Assembly: GCF_963676685.1 (NCBI RefSeq)
Contig: NC_092345.1
Span: forward strand, 30,070,001 to 30,134,000
Direction: 5' to 3'
DNA: 64,000 nucleotides
Origin: Mytilus edulis
Taxonomy: Eukaryota
Shown here: positions 5,341-62,323 of the stretch, one piece after another
Layout: the number at the start of each line of letters is the position of its first letter
Numbering within the stretch: position 1 is the first letter of the stretch
The notes under the pieces: generated by a model
What the model was told of the DNA's origin: nothing
Seen by the model: only the letters and a program-made list of their open reading frames with translations
Databases searched by the model: none
Program-made: the position numbers and the translations under genes

Positions 5341-6381
5341 CTTTTGTAGGATTTCATCATCCCCTTGAGAAGTTATCTCCCTTATATTGATTTTTTTCAA
5401 CATGGCCCCCCCTTGTTGTTTTTAAAGATATCATGACTTTATTTGGACAATAGGCAGATCTAATCATGATGTATTACCATATGAGGCTGCAAAGGATTTC
5501 ATCATCCCCTATGAGAGTTATATCCCCTTGAAACAATTTCTTTCCTTTGCATTTTTCTCTTTTAAAGGCAATGATATAAATTGTTAATGTTAGATTAATG
5601 ACTGAGATTGGTCTCCGTAATTTTGAAGAATTATATGTCATTGAAATAGTACTTGACAGTTTTTATTTTTCTGTTGTTTTTATTTCTGCAATTAACTATG
5701 TTTCTATTTTTTCTGATCTGTTTAAATAGAAAATACTGTCTGTATTGTATGTTTTAGTTTCATGATTGGACTATATTTGTAGACAACGAACAACGAACAA
5801 ATTATGGAATGCCCATATGACCATCAATTCTCTGTAATTCCTAAATTTCTATACTAGTATTCAATCATTTTTTTTATTTATTGTAGCTTACATTAATTCA
5901 ATAATCACAAAATTTTAATAAGAACTGTTCTTTACTTTATTTGTTTGTTGTAATGTCCCATTAAATTTCTATATTTAATTATATTTATTTCAACTTGTTA
6001 TTGCTTGAGTTTACATTATTTCTCTTATCACAGAATGTTAAAAGACCATTACTTTGTTTTATATTTATGGAAGCATTTGCATTGTTTTTATTACATTTAC
6101 AATGTTATTTAAAGACGCAGACCTAGAAGTCCTTGAAGAAGACCAAAAGTTAATTTAGTAAACGCGGACCTCGAAGAAGACACCCATTGACATGCCTGTT
6201 TGAAGTAATATCACTTATAAATAGGAACGTTATTTAATCATAGTTATCGTTCATAGTTTCTAACAACACTTCTTCGAACGCAAGTCATCTCATGAATATT
6301 ATTGCCGGCTCATGAATATTATTGAAGGCTGGCCTCATGAATATTAACGCCGGCTGCTATCGACGGCTAGATCCACACTAG
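5341..6381 (+). mobile_element. Probable 3' arm of a non-autonomous Helitron-like element adjoining the satellite
   Basis: Ends in an imperfect GC hairpin (gccggc..gacggc, ~6349-6367) followed by CTAG|T at 6378-6382; three 'ctcatgaatatta' repeats just upstream. Confidence 0.45.
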
Positions 6382-10700: not shown

Positions 10701-13700
10701 ATTACAGATTGTCATCGGGATAAACGATCAACACAAAAACAAGGAATTCATGTATACACATGGAAAAAAGTATTGCAACACCAAATTGAAATTGAAATTA
10801 AAAAAACACTTTTCATTTTTTTGGGATATAATTTGGTAAAATAGAACTAGTTAAACATTATTTAAGTATCACCTGAGTTTAATAAAAAAAATATCGACTC
10901 GATAATTTTTTATCTGCACATGCAGCTACTCTACCCGTAAACAGCAAAACAGTTGTTTTTATCCTCATTGTTTTCAACCCTTTAAATAACCAAATTTTTA
11001 AAGTTATGTAATTGACATCTTATAATGGGTCCTGGACAACTCTTAACTGCAGCAAGATGGCAGATTATCAGCATAAGGGAAGCAGGGATGTCGCTGTAAA
11101 AACTGCACGTTTTGTTGGTCATCACCATTTCTCTATAAGTCGTTTTGAGAATAAATCAGGCAATAAATGCTGTAAAAGACATTCCGAGATAATGAAGACC
11201 CCCTATACCATTTGCTAAGAAAAATCAAGCATAATGAAGGTTGGTCAGAAGGAAACCCATTGCATACAAGACAATCATAAAAAGAGAGTGGTGGCCATAC
11301 AGGAGCCTTTTAACAAGAACTGTTCGAGATCGACTCATCGCTACTGGTTATCGTGCGATAAGACCATTTCGGAGACCTTTGCTAACGAACAGACACACAG
11401 TTTTCCGTATCCAATGTTGTGCAGAGTTCGCCAAAGTTGGAAATTAGCATCGTGGAGGAAGATCCAATGTTCAAATGGAATTCGGTTCATCTTCCTTGGC
11501 ACGATCGTAGCCCGGATTTCAACCATATCGAGCATATTTGGGACACTATTGGGCGGAAAGTGCGCGAAAGGACACCCCAGTTCAAACCAATCATGAAATA
11601 AACAATGCCCGTCATCAGAAATGGTTGCTGCTACCTTAGCAACAAATTAGTCGATTTATGGCAGGAATCAGAAGACGTTTAGATGCGGTTATCCGTTTGG
11701 ATAGAGGCTGCGCACAAAGTACTAATTCTTTGGCGTATAACCATCAACCATGATGTGAACAGTCATCTAAGGATTAATTTTGAAATGTCTGACATTGTAA
11801 TGTTCGACTACAGTAGAAGTTGTAAAATGCATTTTTTTGTACAAAAAACACTCCATTTTGGTATTAAAATTGTGGTTATATAAATCATTTTTTTTTTCAA
11901 ACATTTTTTGTTCGTGCCAATGTTATCATAAACTATGTTTCAATAATATTATACACATATTTTATTATATTTCATCCAAAAAAAGAGGCTGATTTTTCAA
12001 GTTTTAAAAAATCAAGGTGTTGCAATACTTTTTTCCATGTGTATATAATAATTGACAGGATAGAACAATGATTATTTTTTTTTATTGTCCTAGATCATTT
12101 TCGTAGATTACAATTATCACTTTTCGTTTATTCAGGAAAATTTGTGGATATATTTTCTAGAGAGTTTGGATAATGACTGTTCAAGAAAATAGAAAAGTTA
12201 TATTTCAGTAAATATTTAATTTCATGGTTTACCTACACCCATGACATCTATGAAATGAGTACCATACGAAGATTTAATGTATCCACAGTATTTTGAGATG
12301 ACGAAATGTATATTGTTGATATACAATACTAAAAATATTCATATTAAAGCAACTATTGTGTAAATAAATTCATCATAGATACCAGGACTAAATTTTGTAT
12401 ATACGCCAGACGCGCGTTTCGTCTACAAAAGACTCATCAGTGACGCTCGAATCCAAAAAAGTTAAAAAAGCCAAATAAAGTACGAAGTTGAAGAGAATTG
12501 AGTACCAAAATTCCTAAAGTTTTATAACGGTACTTTAAAGTTAACCGGATGCTACTGGAGTTCTAATATATTTATCATATCAAACCTCTAGGGAGACGTT
12601 TTGCTTCCACCAAAAGAAGAAATGTGGAAAGATATACATGAAAACATTGAAGCAATGAGAAAGAGATACATTGCTGGAACGCGTCATACAATCCAAGTTG
12701 AATGGCTAGAATATATGGATGGATTAGCAACTCTTATTAAATGCATACCAGACCTATGTAAGTATTAATAAAGTGATTCATTCTCTTCGTCTTTCAATCT
12801 CACTCTTTCCAACTCATCCATTTCAACTTTTCATCGCCCCTCATTCACACACTCTTTTAATCTCACTTTTCTACTCTCGCTCTCTCTTCTACCCTTGCTC
12901 TTTGTCCTTTTCTCCTCTCACTCTTTCCCCCATTCTTCTCTATCTTAATATGACTCCATCGCTCGCTTCCTCTCTCTGTCTCCATCTCACACTCACTCAC
13001 TGCTCACTCTTTCCCCTCTCTCACTACTAACTCTGTCTCTGTCCCTCTCCCTCGCACTCCTCACTATGTCCCTCTCTTTCACTATCGCACTACCCTCTCT
13101 GTCCCACTCTCTCTCACTCTCACTGCTCATTCTGTCTCTCTTTCTCACTCGCACTCTCACTCTCACCCTCACTCGCACCCTCTTCCTCTCTCTCCCTTTC
13201 AATTACTCTCAATGCTCACTCTGTCCCTCTCGTTGCTCTCTCTGTCCCGCTGCACTCTCTCTGATGTGCTACTTTCTGTCGCTGTGTCTCTCTCTTTCTC
13301 TGTCCTCTCTTACTCTCACTTTCTCGCTGCTCTCTCTGTAAGGGTAAGAGCAGAAAGGTTAGAGAGAGAAAGACAGAGTAAGTGATAGAGGGAGAGTAAA
13401 AAAAAGAATGTGATAAGATAGAAAAAATTAAAGATAGCGAAAAATGAGAGAGAATAGGAAATGAGTGTGAGATATAAAGAAAGAGAGAGAGAGGGGGATT
13501 AGAACGACATATAAGGAGAAACAACTAGAGTCTAAGAATAAGACCTAGAGAGAAAGAAAAACAAACGAGCGAGAAAGAGAAAAGGTGATTTTTAGAGTAA
13601 AATCACTTGTAAAAGATCCTTTCCAAGTTAAAATCTTTAAGGCTGCATTAGCAAGAAAGAAATTACACTCGTGGTATAGTGCATGGCTACGGCAGCATAG

Positions 13701-15893
13701 CGTTCTTTTCCGTCAGGGCTGAACAATTAAGCAGTCCATCGGGGAGTGCACCATTGCCTACCAGTATCATGGAAAGGACGGCGCTCTAACCTTCAGTTGT
13801 CCTTCATTAGGTTTGAGCACAATACTGTATATGTTGAAGTAAAGGTCTTATCTCAACAGAAATAATGTACAGATGTGGTATTTAAGTTTTTGACGTTTTG
13901 TGTTTTAACTTTTAAATAAGGAAGTCATTGTCATTTTGCTTTCATTTGAGTATTGTAGTTGATCATTCTTCAGAACTATTCATTCTGCTTTCATTAAAAA
14001 AGTTTAAATCTTTGAATATTCAGAAATGTTTTAAATGAACATATTCAGGGGTGGTAACTTGACAAATTGTATATGTATATATGTGTACCTCAAATAAAAC
14101 AAACCATGTGTTAACCGATCTATCAACGTGTAATATTAGAGAAGTACTAGTACCAGAAAATAGACAGCTTTCGTTTAACTTCTAGATTTTTTTAACCTAT
14201 TTATTAATGAATTTGTTGACCGTTATTGAATATTCGTTTACAGATGATATCAGATACGTTCCTTATGTCGTTAATACAATCCCGTTCTCTTTTCACGACT
14301 ATGACCTACCCAATTATACTATTTACCATGTTTGTAATAACTCTAGCAACAGGACGGGTGCTAACCTTTAGGGAGCTCATGAGATCATGCACAAATTTTG
14401 ATGGGGTTCGTGTTGCTTAGTCTTTAGTTTTCTCTGTTGTGTCTTGTGTACTATTATTTGTCTGTCTGTTGTCGAATGACCCTATGGTATCTACCTATCT
14501 ACCTTCGAAAATATAGTTTACAATGTGACTATCTCTAAATGAATCAACTTAGTTAAAATATCAATTATATGGTCATTTTTATAAATTTCCTGTTTACAAA
14601 AGTATGAATTTTTCGAAAAACTAAGGATTTTCTTATCCCAGGCATAGATTACCTTAGCCGTATTTGGTACAACTTTTTTGTAATTTTGGGTCCTTAATGC
14701 TCTTCATTTTTGTACTTGTTAAGCTTTAAAACTATTTTTATCTGATCGTCAATGATCAGTCTTATGTAGACAAAACGCGCGTCTGACGCATCTGGCGTAC
14801 GGTGACCTGTAGTTGTTAACTTCTGTGTCATTTTGGTCTCTTATGGAGATTTGTCTCATTGGCAATCAAACCACATCTTATTTTTGATACATTATAAGCC
14901 TGGTACCTTTGATAACTAATTACGTACGCCATTACAATCGAGTATGTTATGGAATATTATTTATTAAAGAATTGAAAGGTTCTTTTTGTAAATTTATTGG
15001 GGTGTAAAAGCGTTGACCGAAGTACATTTCGTATTCCGCGCTTCATTCTAAACATGTTCGCACGGTGTCAACGCTTTTGAACCGTATGAAATAACACAAA
15101 GAAGCATTCGATATTTAAAATTACCTTTTTTAGCTAGGATCATGAAAACACCTTTTTTTATCAAGTACATTTCGTATTACGCGCTTCATTCTAAACATGT
15201 TCGCACGGTCAACGCTTTTAAACCGTATCAAATAACAAAAAGAAGCATTCGATACTTAAAATTACTTTTTTTAGCTAGGATCATGAAAACACCATTTCTA
15301 TCAAGTTTGACGTTAATATCCTGTTGACTTTATTGTTGGACCTCGTGTCATAATGACTGTTACATTTCATTGTGTAATGAATGTTAATTTCAGAAGGACG
15401 GGAGATTACTGTTATCCAATCAAAATTACGTATCATAATGAAACATACATTTGATATGATTATAATATATTAGGAAAAACAAAACTATGATACTGAATGT
15501 TTACTTTACATGCTATAGTAAATACAAGAAATCGTGAAGCTGCCAAAAATAAGACATTTTCAAGAAATAAACGTAAATCAATGTATATATATCGTAAGCT
15601 TTCAAAATTTTTAATCGTTTATTTTAGGGAATATGTTGAAAACAGATCCAAAATTGGCATTGACATGTTACTTTGGACCAAGTACTCCATATCAATATCG
15701 ACTTGAAGGTCCAGGAAAATGGAGTGGTGCTCGTGAGGCTATCTTTACACAGTGGGATCGAACACTTTCGTCGTTGAAATCAAGACCTGTAGACTTTGAA
15801 GAGAATACCACTGGATTTTCAAAATTCAATGTCTTTTGCATCGCAGTCGTGGCTATTATTGTTTATTACTTTATTGCATACTATAAAATATGA
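7732..15893 (+). CDS. FMO: Flavin-containing monooxygenase (FMO5-like), 6 coding exons, ~535 aa
   Basis: Exons 7732-7837, 8027-8241, 9137-9436, 9991-10545, 12592-12757 and 15628-15893 with GT-AG boundaries and consistent phases (1608 nt). Motifs: GAGASG (FAD), [15 protein letters not shown] (FMO fingerprint), GIGNSG (NADPH), FATGY, hydrophobic C-terminal anchor. Confidence 0.95.
8325..8410 (+). repeat. Fragment of a DINE-1/HINE-like element with a (GTCC)n tract
   Basis: 'tttatgtcccac..ggtctgtgcgtccgttcgtccgtccgtccgtctg'; layout typical of non-autonomous Helentron ends. Confidence 0.4.
10757..12041 (+). mobile_element. Decayed, internally deleted Tc1/mariner transposon in FMO intron 4
   Basis: Perfect 26-bp TIRs cacatggaaaaaagtattgcaacacc (10757-10782 / 12016-12041) flanked by TA. 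Frameshifted transposase remnants [24 protein letters not shown] and [18 protein letters not shown] (Tc1 WPxxSPDLNPIE motif). Confidence 0.92.
12362..12525 (-). mobile_element. Partial retrozyme-like repeat, antisense to FMO
   Basis: Nearly identical to 34522-34690 and contains a hammerhead core. Confidence 0.75.
12402..12450 (-). ncRNA. Type I hammerhead ribozyme core
   Basis: Minus strand reads CUGAUGA-GUCU(UUUGU)AGAC-GAAA-CGC(GCGUCUG)GCG-UA: all core nucleotides, stems II and III and a GUA cleavage triplet. Stem I is weak. Confidence 0.75.
12790..13585. repeat. Degenerate (CT)n polypyrimidine tract switching to a (GA)n polypurine tract
   Basis: CT-rich 12790-13338, GA-rich 13340-13585, in FMO intron 5. 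Confidence 0.9.
14230..14470 (+). mobile_element. Degenerate 3' fragment of the Penelope-like element
   Basis: Translates ..[10 protein letters not shown].., matching the C-terminus QMISDMFLTS of ORF 23604-24170, followed by the same 3' region ('ggggttcgtgttgct..tagtttt'). Confidence 0.7.
14560..14918 (+). mobile_element. Retrozyme-like repeat (second subfamily) with a mutated hammerhead, interrupted by a SINE-like piece
   Basis: 14751-14799 'aatgatcagtcttatgtagacaaaacgcgcgtctg..gcgta' (CUGAUGA and GAAA mutated); upstream sequence is homologous to the reverse complement of 34690-34800. Confidence 0.65.
14981..15475. mobile_element. Hairpin-type non-autonomous element with an internal ~140-bp duplication
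   Basis: Inverted arms 'aaaagcgttgaccg' / 'cggtgtcaacgctttt'; ~15020-15163 is repeated at ~15164-15305. Confidence 0.55.
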
Positions 15894-18370: not shown

Positions 18371-19675
18371 ATTTCTTTTCCAGTGTAAATATTTAGTTCA
18401 TCCTCAGTTTTTGTTGTGAACTTATTTGCTCATACTTTTTGTAGTTCAACCATATGCAGGATGTGACTATGCTCAATCTGATTATCTATCCCATAGTGTT
18501 CTAATTTGTATTTAAAATGTTTATTACTTTTTTTGTGAATGTCTGCGAGATACATATGTTGATAGTTTGAGAAGTTTGCAGTGATACCTATGTAATATTT
18601 GACAAATTCCTTGCACCTTTTTGTACTTTTGTGTATCTTTTAAAAGTATTATTAATAGTTATTGAAATAATTAATTCTGCTTGTGTCCGAACTATTGGTC
18701 TAAATTATGCAAATAAGAGAATTATTGAAAAAAACTATGCCTTTTTACGGTCCAAGCTAACCGGATTTTCTTTTTTCTAGGATAACTGACTTAAAACAAT
18801 GTCTTTTTCAATTTTGTATTAAATTATAATCCTGGTACGTTTGAAAACTTTTTTTGTATATACTAGTATATAAGAACGCATATTTTATTGTTTTTATCTT
18901 GTGTGATGTAAATTACCCGTATAGATCCTCAAAGATTCTGGTGCAGTTGCCAATTATGATAGAAAAATGAACAAGTCACCTCAAGGTACATATGATTGAC
19001 CGATAAGAAACACATGTATACACACATAGAAATTATGATTATTATATACATTATTATTTGTATGTATCTAGTGTGTTGACTCGCCTAGTATAAATACTTT
19101 GATACAGATTAATAAAACAAAAATGTGTTCTGTATAAGTTATTGATATTTCTCTGAAAAAAACCACATTGATGTGCATTGAAGATGCTATTAAATATAAA
19201 TGGTTAGTCTGCATTTATCTTTCGATACCACGAAATAAGATAATATTGCTAAAGATCCTTTGTAAAAAAAATTTAAAGCTATCATTGTGCCTTAACTATA
19301 ATAACCATTGGATATATTATATTATCTTCCGGCATAAAAAGGATGTAGACAAAATGCATGTTTTGCGTAATACATTATAGGCATGCTAGCTTTGGCGAGT
19401 ATTTACATTATGTCATGTATGAAAAGAAAGATCATGTGATTTCGGTGCTAGTATGGATAAATAAAATAAGATAAAAAGCAGTTTTTTGGCAATTATGTCG
19501 TTGCAAATATTTCAAATGCGTATTTATATATTACGTTTTTAGTGGGATGATGGAAATATGGAAATTCACACAACTCTTTTCATTGTGAGTATCACTCCTT
19601 GTTAATGAATCGAGAAAATTCACAAAAAAAAGTGCCTAAATCATATACATTTTTTTACTTATAGGTTAACAGATA

Positions 19676-20545
19676 ATGGGGCGAAACCAATTTGCAGTTC
19701 TTGGTCTCATGCCTGGGGCATCAGGGGATGAGATCAAGAAGGCTTTTAGGTCCCTGGCACTGCAATACCACCCAGATAAGAATAAGCATGCAGGAGCTGA
19801 AGAAAAGTTTAAAATCATGTGTGCAGCATACGACTTTCTCAAAGACGAGACCAATCGTTTATCGCACGCGAGAGAATTGCGAGAAAATTTTGATTGCAAG
19901 CGAAAACATAGAAAAGGACACAGTGAAAAGCATTATACTTATTCAAGTCAACAAGAAACTGATCCATTCGGACATTCACAGACGTTTGAAGACAGGTTTA
20001 GACCAAAATTTGATAGAAAGGGATATGAAAGAACAAGCACGGACTCAAACAGTAGATCAAGACATGATAGAAGCAAACAGGAAAATAACGGGGATCAAAA
20101 GTCGGAGAATAAAAGACGAGATTCTCAAAGGAAGAATAGAACGGAAAACGAAGAGTTTTACCAGAGAGATCACAAAAGGTTTATTCCAGGATTCATTTTC
20201 GAAGACTTCTTTTCCATTTTTAGTGAACCATTCAGGTCTTTCGAGCAGGATTTCGGCCCATTCCGTCAAAGGAGAAGCCCATTTAATGTGTTTCATAATT
20301 CGCACTTTGAGGAGCCATTATTCGACAGACATTTTGAAGAACATTTTCATGTATTTCAAGAATTTGAAAAGGAACCTATGGCACACTCATTCGGACCTTC
20401 AAATATTGAGGATATGATGAATGACTTCGAACCTTTTGCCGACGTCGGAAGGGATAGAGCTCATAGTCGGCGAAGGTATAAACCTGCAAGACGAAATTAT
20501 ACTTCATTCCATTATCGAGGAGACCCATTCAGAGAAACACTTTAA
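19676..20545 (+). CDS. DnaJ/Hsp40 J-domain protein, single coding exon, 289 aa
   Basis: N-terminal J domain ([37 protein letters not shown]) with intact HPD; charged middle and Phe-rich low-complexity tail; acceptor-like 'ttatag' just before the ATG. Confidence 0.9.
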
Positions 20546-34500: not shown

Positions 34501-36762
34501 TGGCGTTACCAGGAAAGTCGGAAATAAACTCATCATAGGTACATGTACCAGGACTAAATTTTATATATATACGCCAGACGCGCGTTTCGTCTACAAAAGA
34601 CTCATCAGTGACGCTCGAATCCAGAAAAGTTTTTAAAAAAAAGTCTAATAAAGTACGACGTTGAGGAGCATTGAGGTCCAAAATTCCTAAAAGTGTTGCC
34701 AAATACATCTAAGGTAATCTATGCCTGAGGTAGAAAAGCCTTAGTATTTCAAAAAAATCCAAATTTTGTAAACAGTTAATTTATAAATATAACAATATCA
34801 ATGATAATTCGTGTCAGCACAAAAAGTGTTGACTACTGGGCTTGTGATACCCTCGGGGAAATAAATCTTCGCCAGTAGTGGCATCGACTCAGTGGTTGTA
34901 AATAAACTCATCATAGATACCAGGACTAAATTTTATATATATTCGCCTACATTGCAAACTTTAATCTTATTTATTAGCTTCATACCTCTTGGTTCGTGAC
35001 GTCAATGACTGTTGTGTCTTTTGGTATGTTCACATCTGGAATATCTGGTTTCAAAATTTGAACTCTCTGTAGGCCTTTCTTATATTGTAAAGTGTTGATA
35101 TGTCTGGGATATTCGTAGCCAGTGAAAAATATTATGTGTGTCGTTCCATTCTGTTGAAACATACAAATTGTTAATCAGATTTTCGAATATTTGAATACAT
35201 TCTATTTTTTATGTGATGAAACTAAATGAGAATTAAATTATATGTTAAATATAGAATTGTAGAACCGGAACATTGATGACTTATTAAAGTGAATCGTGAG
35301 CATTTGTATTTGTTCTTGTTATTCAAGACTGAACAAGGTGATACAAGGTGATACTGCGAATTGTACAACAGTTGAAATAAGTCGAAAGACACGTTTCTTT
35401 ACATGTATTGCGGAATAATAACGACGGTACACCGGATGACGGTCAATTATACAAAATCGCAATCTGTCAAAGAGTCTCAGAGGAGTTACATTAAACAGTG
35501 TCATTCTTGCACTATAGTGAAATAATGATCATATCATAATGACAGTCTTATCTGGTCATTTATTGTATATATGAACAAACAATCATAGCAAGTACGAGAA
35601 CTTTCTGATAAAGAGTGTCAAAAGAGTTTCGTTCAAAAAGTGACAAGCTTTCTCTCAAACGGTCTCTGGAGTATTGATGTGTTTCGCGGGACGGACGTAC
35701 GAACAGAGACCATCACCACCACCCAACATATTCCAACCCCACCCTTGAGGCGTGAGCAAGGTTTTCAAAAATTTTTCAAAATAAAAATGTATAAGAAAAC
35801 AGCTGCACTAGACTTAAACTAGTTTCTATCGCTTATCATTGTTTTCATATGTTTTACCACAGAGTGGGAATAATTTGTATATCGAACGTTCGTGAGATAA
35901 CCCGCGTTTTATTTTAACTCTTCCACTACCCATTAAACTTACGTCTAGTTTGTAATCGTCCTCGTCACATGTATCAAACTTTCTTATGAATTCTAGCGTA
36001 AACCTGTTATATTTCAACTTTTCAGTAAGTGTCCGCACGTAGTTTTGGTTTTGGTCAATGTGTATATATCCTCTATTGTTTGTATGGACGTCCTAAATTG
36101 AAAAGGCATTAATAAAAATAAAGATTTTTTTTTACAAAATTAACTAAAAATACTATTTTGATTTATAAGTGAATGAATGGAGTACAAGTTGACCATCAAG
36201 ACTCACTACTTACAGTTTTGTATTAAACAATCATACAATTTTCACACGATTCTTTAATTTTAATTGGCCGAGACAGTCCAATAGTATATTTAATTTCCGT
36301 GTAAAATTCAACATCTACTAATGACTGTACGTGTACGTGACAAAGTCAAAACAATGTTTAAAAAACAAGAGAAAGCCTTAGTTTATGTAACTCTTAATTT
36401 AATGGTTGTTGCATATATTCTTTTCCATCTGACTTTCAATTCATCAATCGTTTGTGAATAAATTATTCATACTATCTAAAGGATGAACTTACTTTGAACA
36501 TTTTATTACCAAATAAGTCCTTCCAAAACAAAACTAAATCAGCATTTTCACATTCACCATAATCAGAAAACCCGAACGCTAACCATTCGTTTGGTCGCAG
36601 TTTTCCTTGTATCCGAAATTTCACTAGTTCGTCGGCATAATTCACATTCCATTGTAGGTTGAGCGATTTGTCCTTACTAAGAATTGTTTCATATTTAAAA
36701 TGTTCGGCAAAAGTTATTATATAAAAGGAAAATACAGAACACACAAATGCAATAGAATTCAT
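25507..36762 (-). CDS. DBH: Dopamine/tyramine beta-hydroxylase (DOMON + copper type II monooxygenase domains), 12 coding exons, ~570 aa
   Basis: Exons 36493-36762, 35943-36092, 34986-35150, 33755-33838, 33111-33290, 32344-32446, 30799-30965, 30290-30472, 29691-29750, 28137-28264, 27452-27605 and 25507-25575 (1713 nt, phases consistent). Signal peptide, DOMON (WLAFGFS..ADLV), CuH ligands LVHHM and EVHYNNP, CuM ligands QLHTH and EEMC. Confidence 0.95.
25630..26115 (+). mobile_element. Degenerate retrozyme-related repeat of a different family, with a hammerhead-like remnant
   Basis: ~26045-26092 'ttgagcgttccagatgaagattaatccagaaatgcgcttcggacgca'; related remnant near 50713-50750. Confidence 0.4.
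27230..27355 (-). repeat. Abundant SINE-like repeat ('aagaagatgtggtatgattgccaatgagacaac' family)
   Basis: Further copies at ~14800-14885, 32170-32295, 41730-41900, 50440-50550, 51630-51700, 52445-52650, 53560-53670, 59155-59230 and 62755-62990. Confidence 0.8.
27731..28093 (-). mobile_element. Degenerate full-length retrozyme-like monomer in a DBH intron
   Basis: Colinear with 34522-34947; CUGAUGA and GAAA are retained but stems II and III are eroded. Confidence 0.65.
34522..34947 (-). mobile_element. Full-length retrozyme-like element: ~378-nt monomer plus ~45-nt terminal redundancy
   Basis: Direct repeat 'aaataaactcatcatag..accaggactaaattttatatatat..cgcc' at 34522 and 34900; non-coding; carries an intact hammerhead core. 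Confidence 0.8.
34570..34618 (-). ncRNA. Type I hammerhead ribozyme core in sense orientation in DBH intron 3
   Basis: Same core sequence as 12402-12450. Confidence 0.75.
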
Positions 36763-37910
36763 TTTGCTGCTCTTTGAATCAGTACGTGCAATTCGTATGC
36801 CAGTTACGAACGTAGACTATATTTCTTCATTTATATGTTCCTTAAAGTTTCTTATTGAGAAAGGCTCAAAGAGCTGAGTAATTCTACCTCGATTTTTTTT
36901 AATTAAATGAACTTTGGCGCATTTTCTTATCTGTAATATGTGTAGGTCGTAAATAAATTATTCATGCCCTTTTTAGACGCCAGAGGTATCAAATAATCAC
37001 CATATTAAGTTAAATCAAATCTTAAATTAGATTCTTAATTACTATTCTTTAGTGTAAATTAAAGGTCCATCAATTAGAAAAAATATTTTAATCTTGTTAT
37101 TCTTGTCCAATTTCATTTCATGCAAAGAAATGAAGACGTACATTTCTCGTTGGTCATTACTCTCTCCCAGACAATGGAACCGAGGCTTGACAGGTGCTTC
37201 CCAAATTGATTCCGGATATTGAATGAGTGTTGACAAGATGAATATTTCTTTATTTCTTTATTCAGTTAAAGATAGCTCTGAATTAATTTGTAGTTATTGA
37301 TGCAATGTTTTGTTGTCGAAAATTTAATCAAGTGTTTACAAAAAAATGAGTTTCGTGACACGTTTTCCCTCAATTACCGCTTAAGTAATTGATGACATTT
37401 GATTTCTTGTATATTGCTGTATTTGTTGATTTTCGTGTATTACGCATTCATTACATGCTTTCTGGCATGTTAAACTTATTAGGATTGGTCTGGAACTATA
37501 TTTGATAGACACATTTAGAAAGAACATTCTGTGAGTCGAACTTCTGCGTCCTTTTCAGTATTTTATTGCACCGTAAGAGTAAAAAAAAAATAGAAGGAAC
37601 AACTTTGTCAAATAATGCACTGCAGCAATGACTAAATATAGTACCAAAATGTTTTGTTAAAGACCAGACAGGTGCAGTTATTCGAAAATCAAAGGCATAT
37701 TCATATTTGTTCAAAAATCAACGGCTTCGGAAAGAAAGAAATAAAATACCAGCACGTGAATCAAAACGATACCGGTTGTTAACACAATTAATTAAGTTTA
37801 AGTCTAGTACCCATAAAAATGTGAACAAATTTTCAGTAAATCTTTCAAAGATATTATATAATACTACTGGAAATGGCAAAGCATTAAAAACAAGGAAAAC
37901 AGATTGAAAA

Positions 37911-39916
37911 TCATATGATACCCTTATTTGCCCTCAAATCACAATGAAGACTGTCTCCCTCATCAAAGAACCATCCGCCCATTTTCTTGCATACTACCCA
38001 GAATTCACTTATTCGGAGCATATCCTTTTTCAGATCAACTGCATCTCCTGCATAATGTGGTGAATTACAATCGTGACAACCACCAACAAAATCATTTGCC
38101 TAAAATGTACGTATTATCTGTAAAGGCAATAATTAGTCAAAAACATGGCATTCTATTGCGGTACCCTTCTATTGGCATTAATACTTTAATTTGATGTTGC
38201 GGCTTTAAACACATTATTCCTTTAACAGTTATTTTTTAAATGTTCAATTAGGAGATAACTGTACTGTATTTTAAGCTCCGACGGCATCAATTAGGGATTT
38301 GATGGTCGCAAATTAAGTTTACTGGCGACGCGTTAGCGGAGACAGTAAACGGGTATTTGCGACCATCAAATCCCCAATTGATGCCGTCGGAGCTTAACGT
38401 ACAATATCGTTATCTCCATTCTAATGAAACCGACAGAAAATAACGTTAAAACATGATTTTAAAATCTGTCATATGCCGTCTGCGCTTGCGCGTACGTCCC
38501 ATAGCACCAATTGTCAATTGATGCCATGTAAATAAGTGACGTTATCCAATCAAAATGAACGTTACAAATGTTGTTGCATTAGAAAGTGTAATGACGGTAT
38601 CAGATTTTTCGGAGTGATTGACTTCCAAACAGCACAGTTCAATATTCGTGATTTTTTTTATTTTTGGAAAATATATCTAGATTGCTGCAAATATTGCACA
38701 ATAAAGAAATTTCCGATGTAAAATAGCAAGAATATTTCAAAGTTGCTATAGATTACAAAACCAAAATCAAAAACATAAAGCATAAAAAGGAAAGTCCAAA
38801 TAGCATAAGAAGCAACTGTATAATAATTAGCAAAAATGATTCATTTAACTTCAGTAACTTATAGATTGATTGTGTAAATCAAAACTAAATGGCTGACAAT
38901 AACCAATTGTTTATACGATGCTCGTTAGAAGATAAACTTCCCACGAAAAGAGTCCAAAAAAGGTTTACATGACCTTTGTTTTATATATAACATTGTACAG
39001 TGTATATTTCTACAATCAAGATTTCTTCTTTAATGCACGAGACCTAAATATTTGAAACTTCACACTTGTCACATTTATAGCTTCAATGAACGAGCGAAGT
39101 TCAACAATGACAAAGCCATGCATTAACCGCAAATAATTAATAATACGTACTAACAAAACAAAAAAAATGAATATTTCATCAGAATAAAAAAAAACCTGAA
39201 AATCGAATCGTCGTCCCTTTGCATTAATTAAGAATAAAATTATGTATATATACCATAACACTCATCAATAAAAAGCTCAATTTTCAGAGGGTACCCTCCT
39301 GATATCCAAGTTGTTCGTTTAATTCTATGTTCTGCATTGTTCATTTTTTAAGAGGAAGAACCCTAAAGACATTATTAATGGTATTTTTCAGTGAGAGACC
39401 ACGAATAAATGAAAAAATAAAAGTGAACGGTTTACCGGGTTTGAAATAAAATGAGCAACACGACAGGTGCCACGTGTGGAGCAGGATCTGCTTACCCTTT
39501 CGGAGCACCTGAGATCACCCACATTTTTTTTGGTAGGGTTCGTGTTGCTTAGTCTAGTCTTAGTTTTCTATGTTGTGTCTTGTGTATCATTATTTGTCTG
39601 GTTGTCTTTTTATTTTTTAGCCATGGCGTTGTCAGTCTATTTTCGTATCTTTAGCCCCCCTTTTGTGAAACTTGACCTTGGTCGAAGCTTCGTACAAAAA
39701 AGTTTGTTGGCACTACACACCACGTGGTCATTGACTGCATTGCTGTTGCCTTTTCTGTATGGTTGTCTGCGTGCTGTTGTGCTAATGTTATTCTTGGATC
39801 TACGATAAATTGGCATGCCATTGCATAAGACAAAGGATTGAAGCAATTTCCCAGTGCCTTGGCTGAAATAAGCATATAGAAGAACTCCACTTCAAAACAA
39901 ACAAGATTTTTTTTAT
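37911..39916 (-). pseudogene. Gene or pseudogene for a small Cys-containing zinc DD-peptidase/M15-like (LAS) protein
   Basis: Terminal exon 37911-38099 after 'ttttag': ANDFVGGCHDCNSPHYAGDAVDLKKD..CKKMGGWFFDEGDSLHCDLRANKGII* (H-x6-D and xxH motifs). Upstream exon ~39677-39916: ..ACQFIVDPRITLAQQHADNHTEKATAMQSMTTWC..VRS. Candidate ATG|GTAAGT exon at 42138-42140; joining it needs a frameshift and the middle exon is uncertain. Confidence 0.6.
38251..38584. mobile_element. Double-hairpin non-autonomous element
   Basis: ~80-bp inverted arms at 38251-38417, followed by a second IR pair ttctaatg (38419) / cattagaa (38577-38584). Confidence 0.7.
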
Positions 39917-40246
39917 CTGTGAAATGTTTGCAAATGTGTCGAAAATGATTCTCTCTGCAAATGATAGAATAGGTAGAAACATAAACTAATTAATTGCAAG
40001 TAATATATACATATATATGTTTAGCCATTCAATATAAAAAAAATAAAAAGATCTGATCTGACTTTTATTGTTGACAACTTTCCATTTGAGACCAGGTGCG
40101 TGTTTTTTTTTTTGTTCTTCGGTAGTGAGCAAGGTGGGGTCCATTTCTGGTTGGTTTTTTATTTTGCACTGGGAGGATCTACCTCTTCTTTTTAAAAATG
40201 TGATTTATACGCAGGGGCACATCACAAACATGGCGTCGTTTAGTAT

Positions 40247-41395
40247 TGCAGCCTCAGAACATTCCTGTAGGGAAGATAAAGACTCAGAACATTCCTGTAG
40301 GGAAGACAAAGCCTCAGAACATTCCTGTAGGGACGACAAAGCCTCAGAACATTCCTGTAGAGAAGACAAAGCATAAGAACATTCCTGTAGGGAAGACAAA
40401 GCCTCAGAACATTCCTGTAGGGAAGACAAAGCCTCAGAACATTCCCGTAGGGAAGACAAAGCCTCAGAACATTCCTGTAGGGAAGACAAAGCCTAAGAAC
40501 ATTCATGTAGGGAAGACAAAGCCTCAGTACATTCCTGTAGGGAAGACAAAGCCTCAGAACATTCCCGTAGGGAAGACAAAGCCTCAGAACATTCCTGTAG
40601 GGAACACAAAGCCTCAGAACATTCCTGTAGGGAAGACAAAGCCTCCGAACATTCCTGTAGGGAACACAAAGCCTCAGAACATTCCTGTAGGGAAGATAAA
40701 GCCTAACAACATTCCTGTAGGGAACACAAAGACTCAGAACATTCCTGTAGGGAAGATAAAGACTCAGAACATTCCTGTAGGGAAGACAAAGCCTCAGAAC
40801 ATTCCTGTAGGGACGACAAAGTCTCAGAACATTCCTGTAGGGAAGACAAAGCATAAGAACATTCCTGTAGGGAAGACAAAGCCTCAGAACATTCCTGTAG
40901 GGAACACAAAGCCTCAGAACATTCCTGTAGGGAAGATAAAGCCTAAGAACATTCCTGTAGGGAACACAAAGACTCAGAACATTCCTGTAGGGAAGATAAA
41001 GACTCAGAACATTCCTGTAGGGAAGACAAAGCCTCAGAACATTCCTGTAGGGACGACAAAGTCTCAGAACATTCCTGTAGGGAAGACAAAGCATAAGAAC
41101 ATTCCTGTAGGGAAGACAAAGCCTCAGAACATTCCTGTAGGGAAGACAAAGCCTCAGAACATTCCCGTAGGGAAGACAAAGCCTCAGAACATTCCTGTAA
41201 GGAACACAAAGCCTCAGAACATTCCTGTAGGGAACACAAAGCCTTAGAACATTCCTGTAGAGAAGACAAAGCCTCAGGATATTCCTGTAGGGAACACAAA
41301 GCCTCAGAACATTCCTGTATGGAACACAAAGCCTCAGAACATTCCTGTAGGGAAGATAAAGCCTTAGACAGAACATTCCTGTAGGGAAGATAAGC
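40247..41395. repeat. 30-bp minisatellite, ~38 units (gcctcagaacattcctgtagggaagacaaa)
   Basis: Directly visible. The variant block 'ggacgacaaa..gcataagaac' at 40331, 40811 and 41051 indicates 240-bp higher-order duplication. Confidence 0.97.
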
Positions 41396-42261
41396 TTGAT
41401 AAATATGGACAACAACAGTTAGGGAACGACTATTTGTTATTATGGTCAAGGGGAGGGAGCATGCTGGATGTTTTGCGGATTTATTATTAATTTTAATATG
41501 TCCTTAAGCATGCCTATTTTCAGCTCTTACCTGGCCAACCATGATATTCCTATTCAAAATCCTCTATCCCGTCCCAATCAAAAATAATATCAAATGGTTT
41601 TCTCCTGATTTAACACAAATTAAAATTGATTGATTGTTTGACGCTTATTTTCAACGTCCAGTGACAAATAGTTCATGCATTTTCAGGAAAACCTCGAATC
41701 TTACAGTAAGGTATATAATATAGAAATAAGGAAATGTGGTATGAGTGCCAATGCGACAACTATCCATTGGAGTTCAAATGAAGACGATATAATGAATTAT
41801 AGGCAACCGTATGACCTTCAACAATGATAAAAATCCATACCATATAGTCGGCTATTAAAGGACCTAACATGAAAAAAGGGAAACGATTCAATCCGAAAAA
41901 ATAACGGCAGTATGATATATAACAAAAACAATTAACAAATATCGAATATGAGTCAACACGCATGAACCAGTTTTAACTACAACCACTGAACTACAGGCAC
42001 CTGACTTAGGACATGCACATTAAGAATGTGTTTGTGATCGCTCAACTCTCCCTATTAAACTAGAGATATAGACAATAAACTCACAAAAATACTGATAAAA
42101 TAATAGCCAAATAAATAAGGACGAACACATTACTTACCATTTTGAAATATAATTTGAAATGTATAAAATTCTTCGAGAAAATTGACATTTTTTTACAATA
42201 TTTCAAACATTTCATTCAAGCAGTGTAATCTTATAAATATACGAAATGGAAACCATGTAAA

Positions 42262-45649: not shown

Positions 45650-46471
45650 ATGCCTCCAGTTGTGAAACTTAATGTAGGAGGTAGATATTTTGAAACGAGG
45701 CTTGAAACATTAAGGAAATATCCGGAATCAATGCTAGGAGCTATGTTTAGCGGCCGATATAAATTAGATTTGACCAATGATGGACGGTATTTCATCGACA
45801 GAAACGGTGATTACTTTGAACATATTTTAGAATTTCTCAGAGACAGCTCTTACAAACCACCTAAGGACTTTCTTTCCGCAGTTTTCCGTGAAGCTGACTA
45901 TTTTGCCCTTGTTGCACTACGCGATAAAATGATGATGACACCACCAATATATCCATTTTGCGGTGACAGACCAGAACCAGTTCCAAATTACATGGAAATT
46001 AAAGAAAATATAATGAAAGAATCACGTGATTTCGTTAAAGCTACAGCACGTGGACAAACAATTGTATATTTACTTGCGCTTCAGGAAGAAGAAGAGCCAA
46101 CGCCTGAGTATGTGTACTGCAGTGAAAAAGACCACCTGTTAAAAATCATTGTACCTATTGATAATCCAACTATGGTTTTTTCACACCAATCAAATGGAAT
46201 TATTAAAAGTATCGTAGATGACCAGGAAATTGAGGGTATCGAAGATGTTCCACCTATACTTACATTTAAAGCTGACAGCAAAGACCACGCTCTGTCGGTT
46301 TCCAATTGCTTATTCTATGATTTAAAGAAACATGCATTTGACATCAAAATGGAAAATGAAAACTGTACTTCACAAGGTGTTTTCTATGACTTCGGTTTTA
46401 AAACAAAAGAATATGGAGAATTTGGATGTAATCCATGTTATCATCATAGTAAATTCACGTTCCTCTGGTAA
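45650..46471 (+). CDS. BTB/POZ (T1-type) KCTD-family protein, single coding exon, 273 aa
   Basis: VVKLNVGGRYFETRLETLRKYPESMLGAMFSGR..YFIDRNGDYFEHILEFLRD..VFREADYF; acceptor 'tttatag' immediately before the ATG. Confidence 0.92.
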   Translation: MPPVVKLNVGGRYFETRLETLRKYPESMLGAMFSGRYKLDLTNDGRYFIDRNGDYFEHILEFLRDSSYKPPKDFLSAVFREADYFALVALRDKMMMTPPIYPFCGDRPEPVPNYMEIKENIMKESRDFVKATARGQTIVYLLALQEEEEPTPEYVYCSEKDHLLKIIVPIDNPTMVFSHQSNGIIKSIVDDQEIEGIEDVPPILTFKADSKDHALSVSNCLFYDLKKHAFDIKMENENCTSQGVFYDFGFKTKEYGEFGCNPCYHHSKFTFLW

Positions 46472-49208: not shown

Positions 49209-52200
49209 TCAACCAATCTTAGTTGTTCTCTTATTTCTTAAATTATTGCGTACAATCAATACTACTCCAAGGCCGACGGCAATTAGTGCCACGCCAAATG
49301 TCAAAAGATACCCATAACGAGTGCAATGTAAACCTTTGCAAAACGTTGAAGCACTTGAACTAACTTCAAGATCATATATTTCACCGAAAATCAAATGAAG
49401 AATAATTATAAGAACAGCTCGAAGTAGCATTACCAACCCCCAGTTGCGCATTAAATTATCAATGTGAAACACTTCACTCATAGCTGTAGGTCCAATGGTA
49501 TACACTATACCAGTTCCAACAGCAGCTAGCACTACCGCAGTGATGACAACGCCCTTTCCTGACGATAAGAAAGCATTTAACAACGAACTGATGGCTAAAC
49601 ATACTACTCCCGCGATTAAAAATGATGTCCTCGTTAAAATATGCTTCAATTTATCGGATGCTGAACTGAATACCAATGCGGCAATAATCACTATCGGTGG
49701 ATACATAATCGTGATGATAGTATCTATAGAGGTCAGATCAAGTTCTTTTGTTAAAACTGTCATATTGTTGCTTAGCAACAGCGACACAGCAAATGCCGAT
49801 GAACACATCCATGCAAGCAATTGATAGTCAACAGTGCAGAGAAGTTCCGAAAAGGATTTTTCTGATAATGCGTTATCAGTGTCCATTGCTTCATATTTGA
49901 AATTAGAAGACTGTGGTTCTTCATTATCAACAGTAAGTTCTCCTATATTGGATGATGCATTTCTGAGGAATATCATACAAAATATATATACTGCAGCATT
50001 GAAAGATACCACAACAATCAAAAGTCCTTCGAATCGTGCGTCTGCTGGAAAAGCCTTGTAATATATAACAGTGAAGCTGATCATGCCAATATCAATAAAA
50101 ATAAACATCATCGCCATTATTCGACCCCTTTTGTCTTCTGCAAAATGCGTTGCGTTAAATCTTAATGCCATAATGTAAGCTACAGAACCTCCAAGACCTT
50201 AAAAATAAAAAAAATATCATTTAAAAGCTTTAGTTTGACCATTTCCTTCGTTATAGATATACTAGGTAAAGTTCTTACAAAATAGTTCTAAAACACCTGC
50301 ATGTGTTTGCACCTTTCCTAAGTCAGTAACCTGTTTTTCAGTGGTTGTCGTTTGTGATTAGCCCGTTGGTTTTCCTGTTTGAACTATTTTACACGAGTCA
50401 TTTTGAGACCCTTAAATATCTTGCCGTTCGGTGTGGACCAAGGCGCCGTGTTGAAGGCCGTCCTTTGACTTACAATTGCTTACTTTTTACACATTGTGAC
50501 TTGAATGGAGAGTTGTCTCATTGGCACTCATATCACAACTTCTTATTTCTACTTAAATACGAAATAATAAAATGGATAAAAATAAATGATTAATGAATAC
50601 TCTCCAAAACAGTTTTGTAGTTGTAGTCGTTGAAATTGTCTTTACTGTTACAGGTTCCCTTTGATCATATCTCTAACGGTTCCTATCTTTACATCTCTTA
50701 AAGTATTTAGGTTTGAGCGTTTCTGATGACGGTAAATGCAGAGAAACACTTTATAATAGAACGTTATTAGGTTGTCGCAATATACAGGACAATATTTAAA
50801 GGATGTTATTGATTCAAGAGTCAATGCATTGTTCTATAACAATAGGACTATTCAGGAAAGAAGTTTATATGTAACTTACCGCTAATAAGAAAATAGAAAG
50901 CCATTAGCCAGCTCTTTCCCTCATAGAATGCCACCATCCTTGTAGAGCTCCACAATAAAAGTAAACCAGTAGTACTCAACAGTAAACCAATAACTAATAT
51001 CCATGTAGATTTCAGTTTGCTACCAATCAAATTAGGTAAAAACCCAAGGCCAATTCCGGCATTCAACATGGACGCAAACAATTCCACTGAAATGTAATAT
51101 ACTTAGACTTTAATCCCAGCTTGTGCAAATACTTTGTACATGTATATATCTAAACCTGTATTTTTGTTTCTAATTTTAATTGACATAACTCATGTCGACA
51201 CTCTTCCCTTGCTGATAAAATTATAAGCCTTTAATATAAACTTCATAAAAATTCTTGTGTGTGAGATGACGCCCGCTATATCGATGCCCCCCCCCCCCCC
51301 CCTTCCGAACGCCATTGCTCGGGGACATTCAAATTATTCATTAATTTCAATATAACGTTTGTTCTGTGAAATAAAATGGGCCACTAAAGTCTAGAAAATT
51401 AAAGTATGGTGTCACCTTAACGTCATAAATATATGTTGAAATTGCGTTTATATATTAAATAGGCCGCTTTATCCATACCTTTTTGTTAAAATAAGAATGA
51501 TCGAACGAATTACTCAATATTTTGTCCAAATTAGAATGGTTGTACAAGGCAGTCTTTCAGTCTTTAGCGTAATAAATTTTCAAAATATGCATACAACATG
51601 TACAAAAGTATACAAGTACTTTAACCTATAATGGTTTACTTTTATAAATTGTGACTTGGATGGAGGGTTGTCTCATTAGCACTCATACCTCATCTTCTTA
51701 TATCTAAGTTATAATAGTACCTTCTTTCTGGTTATAGTGAAACTTGGCTTTGATATCATTGATGTAGACATAGAATATCAGATTGGATGCCAACATAGCA
51801 TGAGCAAATCCTCCGGCAAGTAGAGACATCCATCGGAGACAATAGTTCTTTTTTGAAGTCGACAGCAGTTTATCTGTTTCATTCCCCTACAAAGAAAATG
51901 CCATATTATACGCATAGATGTAATACCTATGTTATACTTTACCGTCACATGACCAGTAATTGAAGTTCCTTATTCGAAGTTTGATTCTGCTCGCGATTTT
52001 CCAAAATTTGATTGTTTTTTAATTCTACATAAAATTGTGTTTTGAAATCATTGCATAGTCTTTGTGTGAGGTATAAGGCGTCTGTACATATTTAATTATT
52101 ATATGCGCAACTGTACTGTCATGACAAATATAATTCGAATGATGTCCGATTGTAATGGGGATGTGGTAAAATTCAGTTTACATGAGATAAATATCCAAAA

Positions 52201-60131: not shown

Positions 60132-61042
60132 TCAAAGAACAGTACATGTTTCACTGATAGTCCTTGTGTTTCCATATTTTTTACTAAAGTTATTTTTTTC
60201 TTCACTCGTTTCTGCATCATCAACTAGAATTGTAACATCTTGGCCAGAAGCGTGACTTTTTGTAAGCTCTTCTTCTTCTATCACCTCGATCTCAGCTCCA
60301 TTCTTTCCAATAACTGGAAGGGAACAGTACGTATCAGCTGGTTCTTCCATAAAATCATCGTGTCGACCAATCAGAAAGTACGTATTTAACAGACCTTTAC
60401 CTTTCACCTCTATCCTTCCGCGATCTCTGAATATGTAGTCCTCATTTATAAGCAAACTGTAATGAGTAATTCAAGGCAACTGTACATTGTACATACGCAT
60501 TTGTTTTTATAAATTTCGAGCAGATTTTAGTTTAATGTCTTACTCAGATATTGTTGATAAGAAGTCCGGTTACCTTTATGTTATTACATCTAGTCTTTTG
60601 GACTATATATATATATATATATATATGTGGTGTATAGCTGTCTCATTCGCAATCATACCGCATCTACTAAATATTTGCGATGATTATTTTCTTATGAAAA
60701 TCTCAAAAGATTGTCTTAATACTTTGTCAGGCATTCTATTTTATACCAGTATGAGCATAAACAATGAACAAACACCTTATCGTATTGTACATGAAAGCTA
60801 TAAAAGATCCTGACGCAATGTGAAATAATACGACAGAAAAGATATAAAAAAAAGCCTGTATGATGACACACTGAATAAGCTACCCACCTGTAAGCTAGAG
60901 GACTGACATGTATACGACCAGGAACTCCGTGGCTTTCCATCCTTGATGCAGTGTTAACAGTATCTCCAAACAAACAATATCTAGGCATCTTAACACCAAC
61001 CACACCAGCCACAACTGGACCGCTATGAAACCCTACTCTTAT
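60132..61042 (-). CDS. Guanylate cyclase, last two coding exons (catalytic C-terminus, probably soluble type); gene continues upstream
   Basis: Exons 60888-61042 ([39 protein letters not shown]) and 60132-60456 ([20 protein letters not shown]). Confidence 0.92.
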
Positions 61043-62323
61043 CTGAAATATAATGAAAGAGATGAGATGGAATCAGCACTAACATGATGCTAGATATATC
61101 TGTTAAATTAGATTGACATTGTCTCAGCCAAATTGTTAACATAATTTGAAATACCTTTATATTAATTTAGAGTTTGGGATGCTAAGATTAAAATAAAATG
61201 TTTTTAAAGATGTTCAAATACGTGGAGAACAATATAATTATAAAAAGAAGTATTGTAGTGTATCACCAGCATGTATAAAAGAGATCTTATGCTTATTTGT
61301 CTGTTAAACAAAGCGAGACGCAACGCTGATTAGTTATATTGCAACAGTGTACAGTAAACTGTTAACACAAATAAAGAATCATTTTCATAACAGCGTGGAC
61401 AACCGCAATACTTATGTTGATACTAATACAGAATCATTCACATTTAACTTGTTTGTTATCGGCTATCGATAACAGCGATTTTACACTTACTCATTCTGGT
61501 AGAGGCCTTCCAATAGGAATTAAAGAGAATAAAAGAGTAAAGTACACGCAGAAGCTTGAGAAGAAAAAAAGAAAGTTTAAGTAATCAACCTTTTAATAAA
61601 CACATAAGGTGCTAGTTATTTGTATTGTTTGATTTAGGCCTTTAGAACCATTGGCGACCCCACAGGGTAAATGTCTATGACATGTTCGATATGACAAGTG
61701 GTCGTTACAGACGAAGGTTCACCTAATCTGACCCAATCAATTGATAAGAATCGGCCTTGTCCACGCTCTTATGAAAATGATTCTATGTCTCGTCTTAAAG
61801 TTATTTTGATAGTAAAATGCAAACGTTGCAATTAAAATAGCAATACTTTAACATGCAAAATTTTCAAAATATTCAATCAATTAACCATTGCTAAAGCTAC
61901 AAGGCAAAAGGTCCGTGTAACACTTATCAATTCAAAGTTTTAAAACGTTTTGAAATTTTAGATTTTTGGAATTTTGATCAAAGTTTTAAAATATCAAAAT
62001 TTCAAATTGCGTAAAAGTTTTGAAATTTAGAAAGTTTAACCAAATAATTAAAATATCAAAATTCTAAATATCGTTTTTAAATTTGATAGTTTAAAAATTT
62101 GATCAAACTTTTAAAATACTAAACCTAACGTGCAATTTTGATTATTTCACTTTTTGAAAGTTTGATATTTTAAATTTTTGATTAAAATATCAAAAATAGA
62201 AAAGGGGCGAAAAGAGGGAAACATATACACACGGCACCTATTTAAACCGGCATCAAAAAGGCCAGAGGCTCCTGAATTGGGACAGATGCAGGCCCACAAA
62301 TGCACATGTTTCGTGAGATCACT

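Follow-up and report, generated by a model that had tools for sequence, protein, structure and literature searches.

Exons of a predicted zinc peptidase gene at the locus

We analysed 64,000 nucleotides of Mytilus edulis DNA (contig NC_092345.1, positions 30,070,001 to 30,134,000; this whole stretch is referred to as the window, and positions count from its first letter), in which an initial annotation had proposed a hidden, intron-containing gene for a protein resembling bacterial zinc DD-peptidases of the M15 type. The gene is real, homologous proteins being present in other bivalves, but the copy in the window is most likely a pseudogene and its middle exon had been overlooked. We consider it probable that the locus consists of two exons and a 7-codon stub of a gene that other bivalves have in intact form and that is here likely a dead, unitary pseudogene; for the intact orthologues we predict secreted zinc peptidases with the LAS fold (that of Hedgehog and the DD-peptidases). 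The features are as follows.

37911..38099, minus strand: exon C, the last exon; open frame of 62 codons plus stop TGA, with a phase-0 acceptor
39062..39080 (match 39082-39062), minus strand: stub of the middle exon B, S/YKCDKC, with a phase-2 acceptor at 39082-39081
39431..39653, no strand given: interspersed repeat of high copy number, within the intron and close behind exon A; at most nine copies in the other sequence compared, very high contig depth
39669..39670, minus strand: expected phase-2 donor after R-S-S; TT instead of GT (sequence, three-frame reading)
39671..39862, minus strand: exon A, which encodes the domain's first half; reads A-K-A-L at its phase-1 acceptor (39864-39863)
39693..39702, minus strand: frameshift at a run of six T (39701-39696) near the 3' end of exon A, where the match changes frame
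39863..39916, minus strand: signal-like segment of the initial annotation; most likely intron, without a match in orthologues
42132..42140, minus strand: ATG/GTAAGT, proposed first exon; at chance level, its phase 0 misfitting the phase-1 acceptor of exon A

Exon C (38099-37911) is the exon with H-x6-D and S-L-H motifs that the annotation had recovered from outside the predicted open reading frames (ORFs). It encodes a His six residues before the first zinc ligand (His(-6)), the zinc ligands His and Asp, a Glu five residues before the last zinc His (Glu(-5)), Ser for the first His of H-x-H, and the last zinc His, so that all three proposed ligands are kept. It is 90% identical over 60 aa to residues 163-222 of the M. 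californianus orthologue XP_052092343 (223 aa, which appeared as a cluster member) and 86-88% identical to proteins of Dreissena and Sinanodonta (two matches among three candidates); it also matches four other exons of the same 1.37-Gb genome at 35-46%. Exon A is 81% identical over 59 aa to residues 61-119 of the M. californianus protein, 70% to that of Dreissena and 57% to that of Sinanodonta. The two exons are united in single proteins of these three species, which supplies the joining homologue that had been sought. The upstream exon proposed at 39677-39916 is accordingly real and part of the same gene, but homology begins at 39862, not at 39916. A partial orthologue is present in Potamilus, and the nearest relative of the window copy is the M. 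californianus protein (89% over 104 columns). Exon C alone matched nothing among Pfam and PDB sequences, and single-exon queries of these sources gave nothing useful; because single exons were insufficient, the link to a family was made through the homologues.

In paralogues, the middle exon sits between phase-2 and phase-0 introns. The exon B stub SYKCDKC is identical to the M. californianus protein at seven of seven residues and scores 45, a value reached in none of 150 shuffles (mean 24.6 +/- 3.2, maximum 39). The stretch 39340-39232 was also considered as a degraded middle exon and dropped: the M. californianus protein places the stub at 39082-39062, and the stretch tolerates a 5-nt insertion.

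Lesions of the window copy and their presence in other runs

No complete ORF runs through all orthologous exons in the window. The match of exon A to the M. californianus protein follows one frame to residue 119, and the other frame covers residues 110-126 and reads on to R-P-R-S-S, after which TT stands where the homologous phase-2 donor in paralogues is GTAAGT. Of exon B, 7 of ~38 codons are left, and ~31 codons and the donor are gone; the other 31 exon-B residues score 24 against a shuffle mean of 23.9. In a model of the Dreissena orthologue, helix 174-184 and the beginning of strand 189-193 are the predicted elements that correspond to the missing part. When the M. californianus protein was searched genome-wide, exons A and C were all that it matched at the locus; the same search did detect a paralogue middle exon at 35% identity, so that the absence of exon B is internally controlled. 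Polarised against a freshwater-bivalve outgroup, the window copy has 9 derived substitutions versus 1 in M. californianus (2 not polarisable; p=0.021), with 7 versus 0 in exon C, and the corresponding branch lengths in the tree are 0.11 and 0.

To examine whether the defects belong to the animal or to the assembly, as the annotation had left undecided, we considered contigs from short-read runs of three species labels (X4 and X15, label A; X2, label B; X8 and X11, label C). Contigs of all four runs X2, X4, X8 and X11, and thus of all three labels, cross the exon-B breakpoint without a joint. In contigs of X2, X8 and X11, the stretch 39616-39990 is continuous except for one gap, which lies in the intron at 39907; because this is the only gap, these runs share the frameshift. 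The frameshift region is thus covered and shared in three of the four runs, and an X15 contig likewise spans it without a gap there; X4 leaves most of exon A uncovered, which proves nothing. Of the indels suspected at ~39890 and ~39262, none is listed in any of four runs, the changes listed nearby being one nucleotide lost at 39907 and five gained at 39290. One haplotype of X2 carries 39813 G>C, which alters a conserved Cys codon of exon A. Hence the suspicion that the copy is defective holds up, but the assembly explanation does not, as the same lesions recur in short-read contigs from other runs.

We regard the window copy as very likely a pseudogene. Because the lesions are common to contigs of the three labels, the loss is likely older than the divergence of these labels and younger than the divergence from M. 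californianus. Several observations pull the other way. Exon C has kept an open frame and every zinc ligand, and exon A stays open as far as the frameshift; the rate test comprises 10 sites and amino acids only; contigs drop rare variants, such that an intact allele may exist elsewhere; and 3 of the 10 AG sites 3' of the proposed ATG reach the frame of exon A without a frameshift, all in poor contexts. These sites bear on the possibility of a short product that starts near exon A and in which exon A is joined directly to exon C and the broken exon B is left out. The ATG could provide an in-frame start through these 3 of 10 sites, a phase-0 GT in the 39670 region, in the upstream frame (Q/GTTTCA), would join exon C in frame, and exon C has no internal stop. 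However, such a product would lose the core helix of the fold and depend on weak splice sites, the derived substitutions (9 versus 1) and the change of the conserved Cys in the X2 haplotype (39813 G>C) speak against it, and the single contig over exon A labelled as RNA (a guessed label) continues unspliced into repeat sequence. We consider a short product improbable. Still less credible is that the gene is intact in the animal and its breaks stem from assembly errors or from a rare defective haplotype: the frameshift does sit in a homopolymer run, most of exon A is uncovered in X4 and rare variants are dropped from contigs, but the T-run has the same length in short-read contigs of X2, X8, X11 and X15, all four runs of three labels cross the exon-B breakpoint without a joint, and ~90 missing nt cannot arise by homopolymer error.

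In one raw RNA run (X21, of another species label and unknown tissue, of which ~6% was read), bins 37000-38001 were without depth, and the best 15 of its 569 joints included no exon junction of the gene, repeats having swamped the tables; neither result is evidence of silence.

The 5' side of the gene

The annotation had proposed that the gene begins at an ATG at 42138 with a signal-peptide-like start, reached by way of a 1-nt frameshift. This start finds no support. ATGGTAAGT (42140-42132) occurs once in the window versus 0.81 times expected and at least once in 56 of 100 shuffles, the donor is in the wrong phase for exon A, and joining the ATG to an acceptor at 39918 leads to a stop after 39 aa. 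The 1-nt loss at 39907, present in four of four runs, does not restore the frame. Upstream of exon A, the orthologues run into a region of which about half is Gly, Ser or Asn, with conserved islands; because they lack the signal-like start, no 1-nt frameshift is needed. Neither the window with a further 40 kb nor the whole genome (61-aa query, in a search without internal control) yielded the 5' part of the gene. Directly upstream of exon A, at 40250-41390, lies a 30-bp tandem repeat (37.9 copies, 91% matches) that yields long spurious ORFs.

Predicted zinc site and altered H-x-H motif

Among 206 domain rows of the family, the first zinc His is present in all, the Asp in 205 and the last zinc His in 182 (19 gaps); 204 rows have the His six residues upstream, at the position of Sonic hedgehog (Shh) His135, and 170 have the first His of H-x-H. 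The window copy has the zinc motif of the LAS superfamily in exon C (H-x6-D within S-x-H-x2-G-x-A-x-D) and the third zinc ligand, a His on the last strand. The H-x-H of M15A enzymes is replaced by S-L-H in the window and in all orthologues, including 4/4 full-domain clade members in the tree from three bivalve orders. The Ser noted at the first His is thus correctly read, and because all orthologues carry the same S-L-H it is an old clade trait, not decay. Through the family alignment, the His of S-L-H aligns to Shh His183 and to His197 of the bacterial enzyme 1LBU.

The residue at -5, which aligns to 1LBU His192, is His in 78/78 parsed bacterial loci (of 80, selected by motif). Of the 20 animal rows that could be parsed (21 in all), 13 have Glu there, among them the window copy and the S-L-H clade. 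We take 1LBU His192 to act at the general-base position, and by alignment the -5 residue may serve as general base in the family; against this stands that the assignment is one of sequence alignment only and lies one residue off Shh Glu177. In the portions of the source drawn on here, Shh His135 and His181 are described as transition-state residues rather than zinc ligands, with Glu177 as base (PMC8052667). Ply500 has Pro at the Shh His181 position (excerpts of PMC4102407), and because of this a His is not strictly needed there; LysB4 and VanX are described in part of another source as using an acid as base (PMC6354061). These three enzymes (E/D-x-x-H) have, as far as the passages concerned go, no His at -2 and an acid at -3, as does the clade with D/E-S-L-H (PMC4102407, PMC6354061); they differ in a weaker fold match (Z 5.1-5.3) and in the Arg that stabilises the intermediate where the family has His. 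By analogy, Ser in place of the first His of H-x-H need not abolish catalysis.

In the mechanism we propose for the intact protein (M. californianus numbering), zinc would be bound by His176, Asp183 and His213, His170 would stabilise the transition state as Shh His135 does, and Glu208 or a neighbouring acid would activate water. The bivalve S-L-H clade would have kept the zinc site with an altered pocket.

Fold and comparison with known systems

A profile of 70 family sequences searched against the PDB found Hedgehog N-domains first (E 3e-6) and 1LBU weakly (E 0.2). The model of the Dreissena orthologue (mean pLDDT 77, pTM 0.70) shows an antiparallel sheet under the zinc site with helices behind, as in the LAS fold, part of which is absent from the window copy. 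In VIA-align it matched Shh with Z 7.5 (rmsd 3.3, 111 aligned) and 1LBU with Z 6.9 (3.2, 103), followed by VldE, MepA, VanX and Ply500, and the top 11 were all of LAS fold; the top Foldseek rows were Hedgehog (best E 0.025). These scores call for restraint, as Foldseek gave no match at E<=0.001 with this model and every Z is below 8. Motif and modelled fold nevertheless agree with the Hedgehog/DD-peptidase type of zinc site originally named, and the intact orthologue is predicted to work like a LAS zinc peptidase. By profile and modelled fold, the family appears nearer to Hedgehog than to the solved bacterial M15 enzymes. The M15 profile matches that had been expected materialised in part: the exons and orthologues have none to PF08291, which matches 12/70 members at E<=0.1, the relatives scoring 13.9-21.1 bits and all scores seen being below the 23.2-bit cut-off; the family profile does find Hedgehog N-domains and then, weakly, 1LBU.

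With the N-domains of Sonic, Indian and Desert hedgehog (3ho5, 6rmg; PF01085) the family shares the H-x5-H-x6-D spacing including the His135 equivalent, the last zinc His and the fold. Unlike them, it matches in sequence over only ~58 profile columns, HH_signal is found in 1/70 members (E 0.021), the S-L-H clade has Ser at the His181 position and the full-length orthologues lack a Hint domain; HH_signal over ~150 aa with a C-terminal Hint domain, as in a Hedgehog ligand, was not found, and the portion of Shh with the calcium sites and the lipidated N-terminal Cys did not align to the family profile. To 1LBU, the S-x-H-x2-G-x-A-x-D motif and the G-H-x-x-H-x-H tail of bacterial members align at His154, Asp161, His192, His195 and His197, and bacterial family members share PG_binding_1 fusions with it; however, the family has G-G-x-H before the first ligand and animal members mostly have Glu at -5.

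Rusticalins, as described in parts of PMC6339383, are likewise secreted animal proteins with a bacterial-type MD/M15 domain of proposed horizontal origin, and family members of Patella, Lottia and Diadema have Cys-rich repeats that look similar by eye. In the same parts of that source, rusticalins match Ply500 (2VO9) at E 1.5e-16 and occur in tunicates, lancelets, coral and Trichoplax (PMC6339383), whereas the named members of the present family are molluscs and echinoderms and 2VO9 is not listed by the family sequence profile at E<=10 (Z 5.1 by fold). Paired Cys-rich repeats before the peptidase domain were not found in the orthologues, which have a Gly/Ser/Asn-rich region. Measured against the available portions of PMC6339383 and PMC7379824, the intact orthologues fall outside the rusticalins, without the Cys-rich repeats; they likewise fall outside M15A, given S-L-H and scores under the cut-off, and outside Hedgehog, given the short match and the lack of Hint. 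BacHh proteins are bacterial LAS peptidase domains close to Hedgehog and a proposed source of an animal gene (sections of PMC6027127); they are described there as >50% identical to ShhN, with calcium sites (PMC6027127), whereas the Dreissena model aligns to Shh at 16-21%.

Spread, domain partners and origin of the family

Searching 1.84 billion representatives with a Lottia query gave 108 matches at E<=0.001. Among 20 matches looked up, the named ones were gastropods, bivalves, sea stars and one actinobacterium, and a further search added a sea urchin member. The family occurs in at least 14 named mollusc and 3 echinoderm genera or species and in 8 bacterial phyla. Bacterial homologues comprised 7 plasmid records and 80 genome loci, kept of 92 and found by one motif; GenBank phages had no match to the family. 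Of 32 scanned bacterial ORFs picked from the 80 loci, 19 carried PG_binding_1, GH46, L,D-transpeptidase or Rv2525c-like domains, 2 eCIS_core (L057 and L089) and 11 no domain, and two plasmid copies lie near amidase genes. Hydrophobic leaders are present in 7/7 checked animal members outside the S-L-H clade, and animal members carry SH3b-like, Cys-rich, SLT or VWA domains as partners. No scanned member reached the Pfam cut-off for the peptidase domain. An Atlas search returned unnamed clusters at 0.92 and Hedgehog/M15_3 clusters at 0.83-0.86, which are leads only. Searches of the open main texts of the literature found no description of this LAS/M15-type family or of six accession and locus names, although supplementary proteome or transcriptome tables could list them.

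In a tree of 45 named rows (21 animal, 24 bacterial; unnamed and viral rows left out), the split between animals and bacteria had support 100/100. A larger tree of 94 rows that also took in unnamed ones kept the named animals together (SH-aLRT 87) and apart from a group of 58 bacterial or bacteria-like rows (94); two unnamed rows fell between the two groups. The S-L-H clade had support 100/100, a stem of 1.43 and short inner branches, its domain being 74-79% identical across three bivalve orders. The split fits one ancient acquisition: the family would derive, through a single event that preceded the divergence of molluscs and echinoderms, from peptidases of the bacterial cell wall. Against a fixed direction, the tree is unrooted and its bacteria are mostly motif-picked, so that it does not set the direction of transfer; that genes passed from bacteria to animals we infer only from substrate and from the spread over 8 bacterial phyla. 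Of the horizontal origin suggested for the gene, the tie of bacterial relatives to peptidoglycan stands, but any transfer was ancient, with molluscs and echinoderms on one side, and not specific to this genome.

Further members in the genome include L006 (G000:C1:58349000-58358999) and L008 (C1:122397500-122407499), paralogues with open, spliceable domain exons and intact H-I-H, the former also with a leader and an SH3b-like exon; they are likely working family members. L007 (C1:58431500-58441499) has an exon at 8029-8193 that is a near-copy of L006 with the zinc-ligand Asp changed to Asn, and its upstream ORFs (3-2965) resemble, by eye, the reverse transcriptase and the tyrosine recombinase of a DIRS-type element. 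Family exons also lie at G000:C7:77142914, C7:77065416 and C1:37380787; at least two have internal stops and therefore represent more decayed copies. Elsewhere, the unnamed P0010, P0022 and P0125 are fused behind VWA domains (four in P0125) and have lost the last zinc His, which makes them probable non-catalytic variants. The oyster member P0127 (Saccostrea) has a weak C-terminal SLT match (E 4e-4, under cut-off), the limpet protein P0117 (Patella vulgata) is named 'lysozyme 3' at its source yet ends in the family peptidase domain, and two viral contigs (L116, L117) carry the peptidase domain.

Other features of the window

Apart from the array at 1146-5421, the remaining window features were tentatively identified by eye from translations.

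1146-5421, minus strand: array of ~345-bp units, each repeating a ~94-aa open frame
9116-15893, plus strand: flavin monooxygenase
19670-20545, plus strand: DnaJ ORF
36472-36816, minus strand, just downstream of the gene: copper monooxygenase, tyramine beta-hydroxylase-like
45650-46471, plus strand: BTB/KCTD ORF
49209-51102, minus strand: MFS transporter
60132-61072, minus strand: soluble guanylate cyclase

Function of the intact orthologues

A dead gene at the locus is in itself ordinary. The intact protein would comprise a hydrophobic leader (in the longest model only), a long Gly/Ser/Asn-rich region, a helix and a domain of ~150 aa, and its default substrate would be the peptidoglycan stem peptide. 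We lean, by a modest margin, towards the intact clade being a peptidoglycan peptidase. An antibacterial role is plausible for the family and less sure for the slow-evolving S-L-H clade, which might instead have ceased to be an antibacterial enzyme and have become a structural or signalling protein that binds zinc (in matrix, shell or larval secretion) and acts on a partner from the animal itself, in parallel to Hedgehog. The long stem of 1.43 followed by very short branches, the single copy and a domain identity of 74-79% across the three bivalve orders, where other bivalve members share 40-55%, fit such an endogenous role, although the latter comparison is loose, as the other members may not be orthologues. 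So do the N-terminal region, which is ~50% Gly, Ser and Asn with conserved islands and has no SH3b or Cys-rich binding modules, and Shh as the closest solved relative. On the other side, the zinc ligands, His(-6) and Glu(-5) are all kept, and the gene was dispensable in one mussel lineage. We hold this alternative to be tentative and less probable than a peptidoglycan peptidase; a non-catalytic binder takes the small remainder of our confidence.

More speculatively, and in our estimate unlikely, animals would have a second Hedgehog-like lineage that has gone unrecognised: a bacterial cell-wall zinc peptidase would have entered bilaterians once and stayed mostly antibacterial, and one bivalve copy would have been recruited, like Hedgehog, to an endogenous role in matrix or signalling, remained nearly unchanged across three orders and been lost in one mussel lineage. 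If so, the mussel loss would be a natural knockout; if the family is active on peptidoglycan, it would form an overlooked arm of invertebrate immunity. The family offers living intermediates for how Hedgehog arose from a cell-wall peptidase, and since the clade is conserved in bivalves but was naturally lost in a single mussel lineage, its function can be tested by comparing species.

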